Source: a virus. Taken from it: a DNA stretch of 64,000 bases. The notes below the pieces were generated by a model, which did not search any database, was not told the DNA's origin, and saw only the letters and a list, made by a program, of their open reading frames with translations. The number at the start of each line of letters is the position of its first letter. Position 1 is the first letter of the stretch. A program made the position numbers and the translations under genes. Shown here piece after piece: positions 4,395 to 64,000 of the stretch. The DNA lies in the IMG/VR virus record IMGVR_UViG_3300022752_000019, positions 64,001 through 128,000 of that record. The stretch is one strand, 5' to 3'.

Positions 4395-6250
4395 GACTGA
4401 TTGTCCTTTTTCTGCCCGAACGAACTATCGAGCAAGTTTGCAGCGCCGCCAGCAATATCTGCGCCGATATTTTCAGCAGTCGTTCCAATTGCCATTCCGC
4501 CGACTGCCGGAACAATGCCTTTGGCACTGAAGCCTGATCTGCCCGTGTTGGTGAAGAGATTGGACTTACTGAGCCCGAGGTTTCGTCCGCCAAAAAGATG
4601 ACCCGTTGCCGACGCAGTGCCGGCAACTGCCAGTCCCCTTGCAAGTCTTTCTGCGGTACTTCTCTTCTTTCCGGTTTCTGGATCAACCTCCTCAGAGGCA
4701 GCACCGACTCCTCCCAGAACAGGCGCCGCAACTTCCATTACTCGCTCGCCCGGGCCGTAGTACCACATGCCGCGATTTGTTGTTGCAGTGCCTGCGGCAG
4801 CCTGTTCTTGAGCCCGCCTGCCTAAAGTCCGGTACATGCTCTCGATTTTTCCATAGTCAACATTTTGGCCAGCCTGCGCCGCAGAGTCCATTTCATCAAT
4901 TAAAGACCGCAGGCTCTTAGCGGAGTCTTCGTCAAACGCCACGTTTTGGTACTTTTGCCTTCCAGCACTAAGAAATCCTGACCGGCGCAGACTGTCCACG
5001 ATTCCTGGGGAGCCTTGTACCTCATCAAGGGCTTTAAACTGGTCAACTCTACCAACAAGTGGTTTGTTGGCCGCTGCTTGACTACGCAACGTCTCATCTA
5101 AGTTGCGCAAACTTTCCGACATAAGCTCTACTCGCTTAGACTGCGCAGCCCCTCGTGCAAACTCATCGGCTCCTTCTCCTACGTAGCTTGCACCGGTCCT
5201 TAGCCCACGACCCATTGACGTTATGGGCTTAGTTACGACCTCCTTAACTGTGGTCAAGAACTTACCGGCCCGGGCCGGGTTTCTCAGCAACGCGGCGCCG
5301 ATCAATCCCGCGCCGCCTACAGACACCGGATTAACGTGCTTCAAGATTGGAGACGATGGTTGTTTGCTCTGAGTCCCAGGGATCTGTACCTGATCATCAG
5401 GGTTTATAACGTTGTGTGCCGAAATAGCTTTTGGAACATCCGCAATTCCTGCCGTCTTTGTCGCCTGCAATGAAGCAGTGAACTCAAGCAGATCTCCGAT
5501 GCCCTCCATGAGCTTCGATGCGCAGATGTCGTCAGCAGTCTCTTTAAGCGTATGACCGCCGACCGACAGGGCGCGGACAAGCGCCTTCTGAACTCCCGCA
5601 GTCGGGAGTTTCGTGACGACTTTGACTTTGGAGCCGTTGAACTTCTTTTTTAGCTCCTCATCAGGTTCCATCTTCAGAAGGCTGTCGGTGTTGTAACGAT
5701 CGGTGCAGTAGCTACAGAGACCGTCTTCTTTTGGCTCTTCCTCGTTTCCGCACTCACCGCAGACCTGCGTGACCTTTGAGATCAGGGGGTTGAGGAACTC
5801 CAGCGGCTCAGGCACATACCAGATCCCGGACTCGTGAAGCTGCGCCGCCATGTATCGACGCACCTCCTCAGAGAACTCTGGGATGTCGCCGATCGTTCCA
5901 AGGTCCAATCTGATGCGATTCGCAGCATCCACTGCGAGCATTAGGTCGGAGACCGACTGATTGTCGATGTGAGATACGGACGGGATCTTTCCAACGAGCG
6001 CCTGGGAGACCGTGTGGAACGTCTCCCAGCTCGTCCAAAACTGATCGTGGTTGGCGACAGACACCGCCGCCATCAACTTGATCAGAACTACGCGCGGAAT
6101 GTTGATCTTGAGACGGCTCTCCACTGACCGCTTGATGACAAACGGCTCCCACTCCAACGCACCGACACCGAAGAGTCGGAGGTAGGATCGAAGAAGAAGA
6201 AGCGGGTGCGTCTTCTCATTCTTGAAGGTCTGAAGATCAGTAGCCTCCAT
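4391..6250 (-). CDS. Putative virion protein: Cys-containing N-domain, KTAG junction, then Gly-zipper C-terminal module
   Basis: Likely ATG at 6250 overlaps the upstream gene end; ATGA overlap with portal; CGECG/CSYC; Gly-rich hydrophobic segments. Confidence 0.7.
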   Translation of the reverse strand: MEATDLQTFKNEKTHPLLLLRSYLRLFGVGALEWEPFVIKRSVESRLKINIPRVVLIKLMAAVSVANHDQFWTSWETFHTVSQALVGKIPSVSHIDNQSVSDLMLAVDAANRIRLDLGTIGDIPEFSEEVRRYMAAQLHESGIWYVPEPLEFLNPLISKVTQVCGECGNEEEPKEDGLCSYCTDRYNTDSLLKMEPDEELKKKFNGSKVKVVTKLPTAGVQKALVRALSVGGHTLKETADDICASKLMEGIGDLLEFTASLQATKTAGIADVPKAISAHNVINPDDQVQIPGTQSKQPSSPILKHVNPVSVGGAGLIGAALLRNPARAGKFLTTVKEVVTKPITSMGRGLRTGASYVGEGADEFARGAAQSKRVELMSESLRNLDETLRSQAAANKPLVGRVDQFKALDEVQGSPGIVDSLRRSGFLSAGRQKYQNVAFDEDSAKSLRSLIDEMDSAAQAGQNVDYGKIESMYRTLGRRAQEQAAAGTATTNRGMWYYGPGERVMEVAAPVLGGVGAASEEVDPETGKKRSTAERLARGLAVAGTASATGHLFGGRNLGLSKSNLFTNTGRSGFSAKGIVPAVGGMAIGTTAENIGADIAGGAANLLDSSFGQKKDNQS

Positions 6251-7331
6251 TGTTCGTATCCCTGGACTGCGAGGCGAGCCGTGAGAGGAGGATCTGCTGC
6301 TCAAGAGGCATGCCCTTGAAAGTGCCTACCGGATCACGCCGGAATCGCTCAACTACGCTGTCCTCAAAGACATCTTCCAGTCCGGCGTGGCTTGCGGTGC
6401 TGCCCGAGTACCTCTTGAGCATCGACTCCGTAACGTAATCGCCTCCATGAATCCAGGAGTATTCCGCCTGTTTCTCTGTCCCGTAGACAGCCAGGACGGG
6501 GTCCGGGATGTTGTTGCCGTACCGATTCAGGAGCCCTGCCCTCTCATCCATGAGGAACAGCGTCTCCACGACATCATCGGGATCCATCGCCGCTGCCATC
6601 TTGGAAAGGCGAAGGTAGTCGCTCTGGTACTCTGGATTTGCCGTGTACTCCGCTCTCCGCGAAGCGACCTTCTCGAACCTGGGACTCAGCGTAGTCCCGC
6701 TGTAGCGGAAGATGTGATCCGGGACAACGGCGCCCACCGCACTTGCCAGCTTGACAACATCGACTGCGGCCTCATGACGATCGTAGGGATCCAGGTCGTC
6801 CCACTTGCGAATCGTCTCTGAGATCGCATCAAAGGCCGATGCCTGCTTGACCTGGTGGGCGCCAAGGGGCTGCGACATCCCCTTGCCCATCGGGCGGGCA
6901 ATCTGCGAGGGCTCGAAGGACGCAGTCTTGGCATATTGAGTGCTTGACGCGCTCTTCACCAGCACGCGACGTCCATCTCCCGGAAGGTTCTCGCCCTCGT
7001 TTGCCAGAAGGTACAGCGCGGGATGGGACTGAAGCCCGAGATCGTCAGCCGCGTTCAGTAGGTTTGCTGCGGCAACCTTGACGGCCCCGGCAGGGAGATC
7101 GTGCTCCGCGTTGAGCAGATACCACTGAGACAGGAAGGTGTTCCCGGCGTCGTGGCAGGCAAACTTCCTGTGCTCCTTGCCCTGGCTGTCGACGATGATG
7201 AGCGCAAAGTCCCGATCGTACAGGTCATCGCGCTCCTTCCAAGACGCCGTCTTGAGAAACTCAAGCCCGTCCTTCGGCCCAGAAGCGCGGAACAGATCGC
7301 AGAGGTCGTCGTGCTGGTCTACCACTGGCAT
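6237..7331 (-). CDS. Putative head-associated protein rich in K-x-A motifs
   Basis: ATG 7331 with AGGGG SD; first gene of the portal operon; 10 of 17 Lys are in K-x-A. Confidence 0.7.
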   Translation of the reverse strand: MPVVDQHDDLCDLFRASGPKDGLEFLKTASWKERDDLYDRDFALIIVDSQGKEHRKFACHDAGNTFLSQWYLLNAEHDLPAGAVKVAAANLLNAADDLGLQSHPALYLLANEGENLPGDGRRVLVKSASSTQYAKTASFEPSQIARPMGKGMSQPLGAHQVKQASAFDAISETIRKWDDLDPYDRHEAAVDVVKLASAVGAVVPDHIFRYSGTTLSPRFEKVASRRAEYTANPEYQSDYLRLSKMAAAMDPDDVVETLFLMDERAGLLNRYGNNIPDPVLAVYGTEKQAEYSWIHGGDYVTESMLKRYSGSTASHAGLEDVFEDSVVERFRRDPVGTFKGMPLEQQILLSRLASQSRDTNNGGY

Positions 7332-7364
7332 CTTTTTATCCCCTGAAAGGTCGAGTGCAGGTCT

Positions 7365-7382
7365 CATTATACGCAGTCATAA
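7365..7382. promoter_or_regulatory. Divergent promoter region: AGTCATAA on plus, TATAAT on minus
   Basis: CATTATACGCAGTCATAA lies between divergent starts at 7331 and 7415; the TAAA element is absent here. Confidence 0.5.
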
Positions 7383-59700: not shown

Positions 59701-59751
59701 AGATGAGCCCAAGGTGGGCTGCATCTGCTGCATTCCCGGGTTGGTGTACAT
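56731..59751 (-). CDS. Tape measure protein
   Basis: 1006 aa, helical and Gly/Ala/Met-rich with hydrophobic segments; upstream of hub genes. Confidence 0.7.
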   Translation of the reverse strand: MYTNPGMQQMQPTLGSSHYPPSFSYAQDTPHAQHRGGAYMGNSLVSGGIGAVHGMAEAGQAGVMGAGLINLGSRLLGAPILTSGWIGTAADSGLMMGMVGGYAGLGLMGASAVAGLAASGVQQANQVGAMFGNMQFANASGDPRTGRGFSQRDLMTLQRGISAIGANNPFVSMSDALRATERFTEMGMHQGIQDAEKLAKRVTQLGKTMHEMARKLGTSMEEAGNIFRDMRGSGFYTAQDVMGNTASMTLMRGFGMSSDQFAAMQRAGAGMTRSAQMSGLGGARTMTAMTEQFMGAIKSGAMSPEQMIDITGAGTPLEAAQMLAQQTLSGTMQGLSGGLGTAMLLAAGQVDESGRFTGDVDRGILESMSAGVMTRDQMSRIAGGKRNTREGQASFVARRQDIMSSMLETGEGQDALLGMIKSLTEQQHGAGAGENEDLFQLVAETQLNMDRRTVRNLQKLRDTRKQRMDALVQEMRVNDRAAELKEQRTLGGTYTKITGTLEDAKKTLTKPFSEGYRDIVGGLQDVERVMLGGGNDVIAGASSKAMQDAIISGLRGADTLNVKLGVGDAARLSAVSGDFGALRNALPSMTDETRARAAASGVDIANRVARLREGGGALTEREMDRLANDLKLGRFRQGETYRTYDKDQLFALIAEQGGEAGLKLVTEANVGRTEGAEGSAKDIKQLQLDAKRAMYGDSLFAGFTDADMFGARNAFLGGVSLLAFDTDNEEAVSRLAEGGEASGLLKLYSDNQKDIDKELSGLVTDDEFEAAAKRINSKYGLNVSGRDLKDMNTMLKGRTGKGAADRAATGVSKEITEAISKAAGAIDSKVSTAKRQEKLQGLVTAAAAQGLTVEGNQQGIRSAIEQLAKQDFSAGSTASEGERVLGFGVQVYKQLEQAEKGGLTLAEAKQATGLDEETLTRVLASSGAVTEGGQIKTTDQAGLRSALAGVVTEGIGMSGKAEQFLNGGMSEMERQSLSIYKTAEMVDSLYTKLKADNVIKIENPEE

Positions 59752-59777
59752 AAAAAACCCCTGGTTTTAGGTCATAA
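59751..59777 (+). promoter_or_regulatory. Putative phage promoter TAAA-N15-GGTCATAA (copy 2)
   Basis: TAAAAAACCCCTGGTTTTAGGTCATAA followed by TAAGGAGG SD and ATG 59797. Confidence 0.7.
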
Positions 59778-60179: not shown

Positions 60180-60374
60180 TCACGTTAGCTGACATGGACC
60201 GCGCTCTTTCTCATTCGAGAGCGTGAACTTACCCGTCTCTTTAGCTACCAGAAAAGACTTGATGATAGATCGCTCAAACCGCGCCAGCGGCTCAGCTCCC
60301 TGAGACTGAAACCACTTGTCGAACGCCTCGATTTCTCGATCCGTACGATCTAAAAGTTCTTTCTTTGTGGTCAT
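60180..60374 (-). CDS. 64-aa hypothetical protein (MTTKKELLDR...)
   Basis: GGAG SD before ATG 60374; only this 3' part of the 341-aa track ORF is plausible. Confidence 0.6.
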   Translation of the reverse strand: MTTKKELLDRTDREIEAFDKWFQSQGAEPLARFERSIIKSFLVAKETGKFTLSNEKERGPCQLT

Positions 60375-60376
60375 AA
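60351..60376 (+). promoter_or_regulatory. Putative phage promoter TAAA-N14-GGTCATAA (copy 3) for the ligase gene
   Basis: TAAAAGTTCTTTCTTTGTGGTCATAA, 16 nt upstream of the ligase ATG. Confidence 0.6.
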
Positions 60377-62456: not shown

Positions 62457-63998
62457 TTAGGAGGACTTCTCTTTCTTGCGCTTATCCCTGAAGTGCTTAA
62501 TCGCAGGCACTCCGAGCACACCAAGACCTCCGAGCTCTACTGCATGCTCGAGGGAGTGGTTCTTGTGTAGGTAGTCTGACAGCGGCTTTGCGGCGCTGCG
62601 CACCCCGGGGATCTTGGCCCCCAGATGGGCCGCGGCCGGGGCAGCTAAGATGCCAAGACCGGCGAGTTCCATTCCGTGGCCGAGGTCTTCGTCCGAAGAC
62701 GCTATCTTAAATGAGGCTTCTTTCAGAGTCGAGTTGCCGCGCTTGGCCGATTTTAGCGCGTTTCTGGCGTCGGACAGAGTTCCATAGAAGTGAATGCCCT
62801 CAGAACCTTTAGCACCGTGAAGGTGACTCTCTGTTCTGCCAAAAGGGCGCCCGTAGTCGCCGCGAGCGTCTGCTACTGACTCTCCGAGCGCAACTGCTTC
62901 CTCTCTCTGCTTCTTTAGCCACGTTTTACTGGCAGGGTTTCCTTTCTTGTTCAGATACCACCAACGGGGATCGGTGACTTGCCCTCTGTACTGTAGAATC
63001 GGCCTTCCTGCCTTCTTCTCAAGTTGTTTTCCGGAAGTCCTATTTTTAGCTGACCCGTCTGCCGGCTCGTTCTTCGGCCAAAGCTCGCGCCGAGCCCAGT
63101 AGTTTGCGCTGAACTTGTCGTTCGCGGTCAGACTTCCGTCCTTTCCGCGGATACCGGCAGAGCGCGTCAGGTAGTTCTTCTTGGCGGCATCTGAGTAGTT
63201 GTGCTTGTAGCCCTTCTGTCCAAAGTGGATCAGCTTGACTTTGTCCCCCTTCTTGGCGAGGACCATCTTCTTCTTCTCAGGCCGGTCGGAGTCGACAGGC
63301 TGATTGTATCCAGGGAACTTCTTGCCTCGGTACTCGACCTCGGCCTCTTTACCCATCGCGTTTGCGATGCGGGCCTTCTTGCCGGCGCTGTACTCCGGGT
63401 GCTCCCGCTTGAGGGCACGGTAGATCTCTTTGACCTTTTCGGGTCGATCTTGGCTTAGAAATGGGGGCATGTCTGCTGCTGTCTTTGCTACAGGTCTCTC
63501 TGGATTAGTGAGCTTTTTTGCTAAGTTGTACTCTGCTACGTTGTAGAGCCCTTTACCAAGGGCTCCTAAGCCAAACCCAATTGCTCCCGCTCCGACTCCT
63601 GCCTTTAGTCGCCTATTTACAATATCTGTAACTTCTGGGTTAAGAGAAACATTCTTGTTCAGTAGCGAATCTATAACAGACCTTGTTCCTGCGTTTTGCA
63701 AAATGGCGTAGTCTTTTACCGCCTGGGCGATAGCCTTTGATCGCGGCTCTGACCGAAGCAACGTACTAGTTACAAAGGGACTTCCAACGGCGGCCCCTGC
63801 CGCTGCGCCTCCGGCAACTCCGGCAGCGCCTGTTGCCAAGACATTATGAGAGTACGCCAGCCCTTTCTGCTCGGGATCCCCTCTGCCTGCGCCAATCCCG
63901 TAAGATCTTGCCGAGTCTTTGAGCCCGATTCCCATCGCCACTTGTGACCCATCTGCGGGATGAGGGACGCCCCCTCCTGTCTTCAAAATTGCAGGAAA
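62457..63998 (-). CDS. Modular polyprotein-like putative virion protein (5' partial): Gly-zipper modules and a DUF5754-like module separated by K-x-A motifs
   Basis: Frame is open to the window edge; junctions AKTAA, GKEAE, EKKAG, LKEAS-FKIAS; KKKMVL...LIHFGQKGY...SANYWAR module. Confidence 0.75.
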   Translation of the reverse strand, partial: FPAILKTGGGVPHPADGSQVAMGIGLKDSARSYGIGAGRGDPEQKGLAYSHNVLATGAAGVAGGAAAGAAVGSPFVTSTLLRSEPRSKAIAQAVKDYAILQNAGTRSVIDSLLNKNVSLNPEVTDIVNRRLKAGVGAGAIGFGLGALGKGLYNVAEYNLAKKLTNPERPVAKTAADMPPFLSQDRPEKVKEIYRALKREHPEYSAGKKARIANAMGKEAEVEYRGKKFPGYNQPVDSDRPEKKKMVLAKKGDKVKLIHFGQKGYKHNYSDAAKKNYLTRSAGIRGKDGSLTANDKFSANYWARRELWPKNEPADGSAKNRTSGKQLEKKAGRPILQYRGQVTDPRWWYLNKKGNPASKTWLKKQREEAVALGESVADARGDYGRPFGRTESHLHGAKGSEGIHFYGTLSDARNALKSAKRGNSTLKEASFKIASSDEDLGHGMELAGLGILAAPAAAHLGAKIPGVRSAAKPLSDYLHKNHSLEHAVELGGLGVLGVPAIKHFRDKRKKEKSS

Positions 63999-64000
63999 AT

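Follow-up and report, generated by a model that had tools for sequence, protein, structure and literature searches.

Unrelated modules joined at K-x-A tripeptides in a mosaic phage protein, probably a capsid-loaded cargo polyprotein

Why does a single open reading frame (ORF) of a large phage join several unrelated protein modules, and why do these modules meet at one and the same tripeptide? The locus that raises the question lies at the end of bases 64001-128000 of a 164,603-bp IMG/VR phage record (IMGVR_UViG_3300022752_000019), the 64,000-nucleotide stretch that was analysed here and is called the window below. It encodes P0002, a protein with a short leader followed by five modules (A-E; Table 1), all strongly basic and mostly hydrophilic, which are parted by the tripeptide K-x-A. 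Our preferred reading, to which we give a probability of roughly 0.6, is that P0002 is a capsid-loaded cargo polyprotein with a leader like the capsid targeting sequence (CTS) of phage T4 and that it is cut after Ala; K-x-A at the joints probably marks the cut site of the head-maturation protease. P0002 is encoded by an uncultured myophage, roughly 165 kb in size and a distant relative of Salmonella phage Arash. The ORF had been proposed as a polyprotein from the letters of the window alone (the sequence-only reading); it is real and longer than that reading had it, with a GTG start codon at window coordinate 64052, 52 nt beyond the window end.

Analysis of the relatives of P0002, which numbered 159 by word-indexed search and 683 by exhaustive HMMER search, revealed that most match only part of the query. 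For example, P0013 is 98% identical to P0002 over residues 190-338 only, and P0006 is 95% identical over residues 235-531 only. The edges of the BLAST blocks cluster at residues 190 (9 proteins), 235 (26), 338-349 (many) and 452 (10), and three of the four breakpoints fall exactly on a motif edge, where motif edges make up only about 3% of positions. Modules C and D also exist as stand-alone proteins of 100-140 residues (P0195 is module D alone). Module D turns up within other proteins as well, and module C is N-terminal, C-terminal or internal in proteins of up to 2325 residues, with NUDIX, PAP2, SNF2, C92 amidase, ferritin-like, poly(A) polymerase, AAA, Zn-ribbon, portal-MuF and protease domains as fusion partners. 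The order is reversed in P0040 (C, then B), modules are duplicated in P0004, P0006 and P0029, module E is internal instead of terminal in P0018, P0021 and P0035, and between two joints there is a HExxH peptidase cassette in P0014 and a P-loop cassette in P0006. The proposal of the sequence-only reading that unrelated modules are shuffled as cassettes at K-x-A joints is strongly supported by these stand-alone, fused, reordered and duplicated modules; the opposite pattern, in which the modules always occur together in a fixed order, was looked for among the relatives and did not hold, as the order varies and C and D stand alone. A separate 292-residue gene of the related contig L009 (L009:10998-11876), with the leader (V)D-K-I-A-A-Y, is joined in frame to a P0013-like protein in P0018, and therefore one cargo can be a separate gene or a polyprotein module.

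The eight K-x-A sites of P0002 are K13LA, K190TA, K225KA, K235EA, K346KA, K434SA, K444EA and K449IA, and the five that had been named from the sequence alone (K190TA, K235EA, K346KA, K444EA and K449IA) are all present. It is the positions of these sites, not their count, that exceed chance. K-x-[AS] stands at position -4 of module C in 144 of the 194 copies with at least 15 residues upstream, compared with 2 of the 16 without, and K-x-A-[SAGED] follows within 25 residues in 107 of 142 copies with a C-terminal extension, compared with 3 of 38 without; many of the exceptions are near-variants, e.g. KKGS, KRGA and KTAK. Stand-alone copies of module C begin directly after the motif position. For module D, ten contexts showed K-x-[AS]-G before RPI... 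and ...L-K-x-A-[AST] after the module, and the stand-alone copy ends without a motif. Within 182 module C cores K-x-A-[SAG] occurred once, compared with 42 expected from shuffles, although these sequences are homologous and thus give one trend rather than 182 independent observations. We rejected the possibility that the motif is an intrinsic part of module C, as the copies at the C-terminus of the ICP1 capsid protease gp125 and in the portal-MuF fusion of Aphanizomenon phage CL131 are without K-x-A; because these two copies lack it, the motif is lineage-specific. A DNA recombination signal was likewise rejected, since the codons differ at all six joints, which places the constraint on the protein and not on DNA microhomology.

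The same joints were found at the level of DNA. Contig L009 is 98% identical to this genome over 4.7 kb upstream and is homologous to the P0002 ORF from the AAG codon of K190 up to R338, and then again from S452 onwards; in a syntenic, more distant relative (L008), homology to the ORF starts at K235. The junctions lie at window positions 63485, 63038 and 62699. Compared with L009, this genome has an extra segment of about 2.7 kb that comprises the body of an upstream 713-residue ORF together with P0002 residues 1-189, and that ends just after the common leader of the upstream ORF (MRYG..K-[IL]-S) and, downstream, at K190-T-A. Module D is a second insert relative to L009, with its own K-K-A-G and K-I-A-S ends in place of E-K-R-A. 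Shifts in GC content near the joins, which the sequence-only reading had pointed to, were borne out on third codon positions (GC3), where the genome has a mean of 0.70 and a standard deviation of 0.10. GC3 is 0.48 for the 713-residue ORF, is similarly low for A1 (values for the modules in Table 1) and falls below the genome's 1st percentile in A2; the low-GC3 parts (A and D) are exactly those missing from L009. The AT-rich stretch noted at 63480-63800 corresponds to residues 85-191 and ends, as claimed, at K190TA. Module C, in contrast, had been called GC-rich and is genome-typical, A and D being the AT-shifted parts.

Two neighbouring loci showed related features. The 713-residue ORF (L002:2071-4212; genome 128071-130212, minus strand) sits immediately 5' of P0002, just past the window end; it has no family hits, contains Gly-rich hydrophobic segments and two internal K-x-A sites, is missing from L009 and arrived together with P0002 residues 1-189. 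At another neighbouring gene, a 904-residue protein of L009 (L009:6272-8986) equals the 423-residue protein of this genome (L002:5814-7085) plus a 482-residue SNF2 helicase cassette that ends in K-S-A-G. Both of these proteins begin with the leader MPLPFYVDFS-KEAG.

Table 1. Coordinates of the P0002 ORF, its modules and its joints (residues are those of P0002).
Feature	Window position	Strand	Residues	GC3	Remarks
P0002, putative mosaic cargo ORF	62457..64000 within window (genome 126457-128052)	minus	531 aa		stop codon 62457-62459
Leader	just past window end	minus			(M)TYKEFRGFVSQ-K13LA-T; N-terminus of P0002
Module A1	63753..64000	minus	about 16-100	0.49	Gly/Ala zipper segment 70-99
Module A2	63486..63752	minus	101-189	0.39	second Gly zipper 149-170; most AT-shifted part; missing in close relative L009
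Joint K190-T-A	63477..63485	minus			L009 DNA homology starts at its AAG codon
Module B	63351..63476	minus	45 aa	0.69	helical, basic; weak DUF7218/phrog_4974 similarity
Joint K235-E-A	63342..63350	minus			left edge of 26 homology blocks; L008 DNA homology starts here
Module C	63018..63341	minus	about 239-334	0.73	alpha/beta domain of ~100 aa
Joint K346-K-A, then G	63009..63017	minus			start of inserted cassette D; L009 homology ends after R338
Module D	62709..63008	minus	about 350-443	0.54	basic domain of ~100 aa; starts G-RPI..Y
Double joint K444-E-A-S-F-K449-I-A	62700..62723	minus			L009 homology restarts at S452
Module E	62460..62699	minus		0.70	Gly/His-rich hydrophobic hairpin and basic tail

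Across the genome, K-x-A-[SAG] occurs 102 times, compared with 55.5 expected, and the excess sits in nine ORFs (genome 39530-47213, 53869-55374 and 70237-71367) with 2-9 sites each, compared with about 0.2-1.6 expected. Eight of the nine lie in the head module, and the giant tail ORFs have 0-1 site. At window 6237-7367 (minus strand), a 376-residue ORF without a family hit has eight K-x-A-[SAG] sites compared with 0.5 expected, making it a candidate heavily processed virion protein.

The head module also encodes a predicted prohead protease, P0235 (genome 43652-45334, minus strand; L005:5655-7334; outside the window), which has 560 residues, comprising a conserved N-terminal domain of about 300 and a variable C-terminal part. 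This protease was recognised by structure only: the Pfam profiles S77, S78 and S78_2 found nothing in the genome, including P0235, and its family was also undetected by PHROG profiles. The AlphaFold 2 (AF2) model of the N-terminal domain (predicted local distance difference test score, pLDDT, 81) had as its best structural match T4 gp21 (Z 9.2, root-mean-square deviation 3.1, 135 residues), followed by the proteases of varicella-zoster virus (Z 8.0), human cytomegalovirus (Z 6.2) and Kaposi's sarcoma-associated herpesvirus (Z 5.4), and the top of its Foldseek list consists nearly entirely of herpesvirus proteases plus gp21. His138 and Ser194 are invariant. On the strength of this model, P0235 is predicted to have the T4 gp21/herpesvirus assemblin fold. 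A conserved K37-T-A-S precedes the catalytic domain (residues about 41-292) and a conserved K293-I-A-S follows it; across about 60 homologues, with identities as low as 46%, the conserved part runs up to PFxP...K-x-A-[SAG], beyond which the sequences diverge. The adjacent 429-residue ORF is acidic and repetitive and has nine sites, in which it resembles by analogy a scaffold that is degraded to peptides; scaffold-like proteins of this phage clade have 7-9 K-x-A sites each. The P0235 family is large and is found on metagenomic contigs of 120-200 kb, and it occurs together with mosaic proteins on contigs of 188,230, 123,674 and 151,105 bp, as matched by contig name and length. Module C is accessory, being present in one of five other protease-bearing records.

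The capsid protein of this phage has K-T-A-A at residues 23-26, a propeptide position. The candidate had no match by sequence in the PDB and owes its identity to homology with gp226 of cultured phage Arash (27% identity, E 1e-27); the Arash homologue of the protease is gp222 (31% identity, E 3e-37). The capsid K23-T-A-A aligns with K27-E-A-G of gp226 and the protease K37-T-A-S with K30-Q-A-A of gp222, which also has K218-V-A, and the scaffold-like Arash proteins gp220, gp223 and gp225 (OQ632216; L050, 139806-154528) have the clade's 7-9 sites each. As judged from these alignments, it is difficult to see what other than processing would keep the motif in place at the capsid and protease positions of proteins that are 27-31% identical. 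Processing is not mentioned in the Arash paper.

P0002 itself begins with a short leader that ends in the putative protease motif, (M)TYKEFRGFVSQ-KLA, as do relatives whose leaders are MNYKLFREYLLE-KEA (then module B), MSYKELRAFLEEGL-KTA (then module C) and MEYSLFNFL-KEA, and P0235 begins MEKYSLF. Leaders of 10-23 residues ending in K-x-[AS] are present in 92 of 230 family members, ahead of different modules. The T4 CTS is MKTYQEFIAE and is removed by gp21 (PMC8442874); the short resemblance of our leaders to it is only suggestive. Other hallmarks of the T4 internal proteins (IPs) were also found: the predicted products of P0002 are small and basic (about 18, 5, 12.6, 11 and 8 kDa, in a range of 5-18 kDa, with isoelectric points of 9.1-10.1), and the phage encodes a protease that matches the gp21/assemblin fold.

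Module C is the part of P0002 that connects it by homology to head proteins. It matched phrog_220 (minor head protein and DNA pilot) with an E-value of 3.5e-33 over residues 227-337, corresponding to positions 507-616 of a 1338-position portal-MuF profile that P0002 does not match at full length; the two have one domain in common and not the family architecture. Against DUF5754 (PF19058), module C scored 16 bits, under the Pfam cut-off of 27.4, and some relatives of P0002 bear a precomputed PF19058 hit. Its AF2 model (pLDDT 92) had no solved structural relative (Foldseek best E 1.4; VIA best Z 2.3). In a viral model library, Foldseek matched it to the CL131 portal fusion, ICP1 ORF125, an XkdF-protease fusion, a ChaB fusion and small iridovirus and marseillevirus proteins, the last at E 7e-5 to 3e-4. 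Judging from the model, module C would be a distant DUF5754 relative, not a member by the curated cut-off, that recurs on head proteins. In Vibrio phage ICP1, the capsid protease gp125 (L004:4452-5288) ends in module C, and in a BFVD entry module C is joined to an XkdF-type protease; therefore, module C has been attached repeatedly to prohead proteases and portals.

Profile searches gave little else. P0002 had nothing above threshold in Pfam, with sub-threshold similarity only to DUF5754, DUF7218 and Romo1, and had no match by sequence in the PDB; Pfam and the structure search with module C revealed no recognisable enzymatic domain. Among 30 neighbouring or head-region ORFs scanned against PHROG and Pfam, there was almost no match other than a terminase, a sigma factor and a sheath C-domain, so the head genes cannot be annotated by profiles. 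The P0002 gene lies among small accessory genes, on the strand of the structural genes, and lacks the promoter TAAA-N15-GGTCATAA found before plus-strand genes such as the adjacent ligase. Copies of this promoter are at window 60351-60376 and 59751-59777 (plus strand), just 5' of the ATP-dependent DNA ligase gene and of a small plus-strand ORF, respectively, and minus-strand virion and cargo genes are without it.

We propose that P0002 follows a route in which the motif would serve as a common processing signal. Its five unrelated basic modules, each parted by K-x-A and then S, A, G, E or T, would share this signal with the other proteins of the clade in which the tripeptide stands, at the capsid propeptide boundary, at both ends of the protease catalytic domain and at 7-9 positions per scaffold-like protein. 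The leader would bring the precursor into the prohead core, the protease would cut after Ala, and the basic 5-18 kDa products would remain with the DNA in the head and exit with it at infection. These products would be two Gly-zipper or hydrophobic pieces, possibly membrane-active, and three soluble basic domains. Recombinants joined at the motif would stay functional, each module being autonomous and bounded by cut sites, which would account for the gain, loss, duplication and reordering of cassettes precisely there. That the polyprotein is cleavable, as the sequence-only reading held, is supported indirectly by the loss of K-x-A where a neighbouring module is missing, by the bracketed gp21-fold protease and by the motif in the capsid propeptide; our results directly show a mosaic structure with exact junctions, shifts in composition, the distribution of the motif and the fold of the protease, and we infer the cutting itself, as well as the capsid location and the ejection of the products.

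This route has counterparts in characterised systems. In T4, a short N-terminal leader, later cut off by a gp21-fold protease, takes IPI, IPII, IPIII and Alt, which are small, highly basic, non-essential and highly variable, into the prohead core; the products remain with the DNA and are injected (PMC8442874, PMC3012670, PMC9958956). P0002 would share with the T4 IPs the CTS-like leader, the gp21-fold protease and basic products, as predicted here from sequence and model. In contrast to T4, where each protein is cut once, after Glu in (L/I)-x-E, P0002 presumably is cut at K-x-A with Ala at P1, chains several unrelated cargos and has internal sites. We found no sequence homology of P0002 to the T4 IPs. 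The proteases gp175/gp245 of the large phages phiKZ, 201phi2-1 and SPN3US are gp21-like, recognise a three-residue motif in many ejection and head proteins, which they often cut more than once, and shed their own C-terminal propeptide (PMC5694885, PMC10052503). Their motif, unlike ours, is (S/A/G)-x-E, cut after Glu, as is the case for characterised gp21-type proteases (PMC5694885), and their multiple cuts mostly clear long propeptides, not cargo domains; module exchange at cut sites is not described in PMC5694885 or PMC10052503.

Cutting after Ala is known from the herpesvirus pUL26 assemblin-scaffold precursor, in which an N-terminal protease domain frees itself from a C-terminal scaffold by cutting before Ser or Thr at an R-site (YLQA-T) and an M-site (VQA-S) (PMC4498786). 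P0235 resembles pUL26 in predicted fold and layout, with K293-I-A-S after the catalytic domain, a layout that also recalls the self-processing of gp21 and gp245 (PMC9958956, PMC5694885). However, pUL26 belongs to a eukaryotic virus, its P3 residue is hydrophobic where ours is Lys, and it has no chained cargo modules. The polyvalent proteins of phages and conjugative elements (Iyer et al. 2017, PMC5512222) combine many unrelated domains with extreme mosaicism and portal/MuF fusions and are thought to be delivered with DNA. P0002 shares with them at least two unrelated domains and architectures that vary among relatives, having five modules that differ by presence or absence, duplication, reversal and fusion to enzymes. 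It lacks a recognisable effector or enzymatic domain of its own, whereas its relatives carry NUDIX, SNF2, PAP2, HExxH peptidase and P-loop modules. Any processing of polyvalent proteins is ascribed to peptidase domains that they themselves contain, and the passages of that paper found by keyword search mention no shared tripeptide joint.

Several observations weigh against P0002 being a cleaved cargo polyprotein. Its eight K-x-A sites compare with 7.3 expected from composition, and its four K-x-A-[SAG] sites with 2.4 from shuffles. K225-K-A lies inside module B and K434-S-A inside module D, and therefore either some motifs are uncut or these modules are fragmented. At three of the six joints Ala is followed by T, A or E, where head proteins mostly have S/A/G; the leader resembles the T4 CTS in about five residues; the junction statistics count homologous, non-independent sequences; the gene is about 80 kb away from the head module; and no library profile puts the whole of P0002 in a virion family, only module C matching a head-associated PHROG. 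The unremarkable count would suit a single uncleaved polyvalent protein, packaged or acting whole, in which K-x-A is a favoured flexible linker or helix cap at domain borders, and some polyvalent virion proteins, e.g. the N4 virion RNA polymerase, are packaged unprocessed (PMC5512222). A mere linker, however, gives no reason for the motif to stand at the capsid propeptide position, on either side of the protease domain and 7-9 times in scaffold-like proteins, or directly behind the 10-23-residue leaders of 92 of 230 family members, nor for its near absence from module cores, and we consider this explanation unlikely.

The distance from the head module and the accessory neighbourhood would also fit a non-virion, membrane-associated protein of the infected cell, acting for example in superinfection exclusion or lysis control through the Gly-zipper helices in A and E, with the mosaicism reflecting ordinary turnover of accessory genes; in line with this, P0002 has four weakly hydrophobic Gly/Ala-rich stretches and weak Romo1 similarity (E 0.05). 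Yet module C recurs in head proteins (portal-MuF, the ICP1 capsid protease and the XkdF fusion), the leader-plus-motif architecture is that of head proteins of this genome, the gene is on the structural strand without the early promoter of plus-strand genes, and the modules are basic and mostly hydrophilic, making a membrane role improbable. Finally, all of these sequences come from metagenome assemblies and composition jumps within one ORF, as might be seen in chimeric contigs. An assembly artefact is nevertheless scarcely credible: the frame is open across every junction, the full A-E arrangement is present at 50-68% identity in independent samples (P0004, P0005, P0009 and P0011), partial arrangements are seen in numerous independent contigs (JGI, ENA, Logan and NCBI), and hundreds of different proteins have their junctions at this one motif.

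If P0002 is indeed a cleaved cargo polyprotein, its architecture may point to a general plug-and-play code of Arash-like large phages (120-200 kb), which are common in freshwater and marine metagenomes. Any domain placed behind the leader and flanked by K-x-A would be loaded and freed by a gp21-fold protease that has switched from Glu to Ala at P1, the assemblin specificity; chaining would give the cargos a fixed stoichiometry, and cut sites would be the only permissible recombination joints, driving the shuffling of effectors between phages. We put this generalisation forward tentatively, at slightly less than even odds. Our results trace the motif to a locus far from the head genes, in hundreds of metagenomic proteins, at exact recombination junctions, around a protease fold and in a cultured relative; because the capsid protein and protease of Arash also have the motif, the code can be tested directly. 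If the cuts are real, this would be the first of the gp21-type phage proteases considered here with Ala at P1, unlike the Glu-cutting enzymes of T4, phiKZ, 201phi2-1 and SPN3US, and specificity as well as fold would connect the maturation proteases of phages and herpesviruses. Capsid cargo could then be encoded as exchangeable, cut-site-bounded cassettes inside polyproteins, suggesting a natural design for loading foreign proteins into capsids, and there would be a simple rule to predict which proteins of this large phage clade, most of it unannotated, are injected, such proteins being likely factors of early host takeover or anti-defence.

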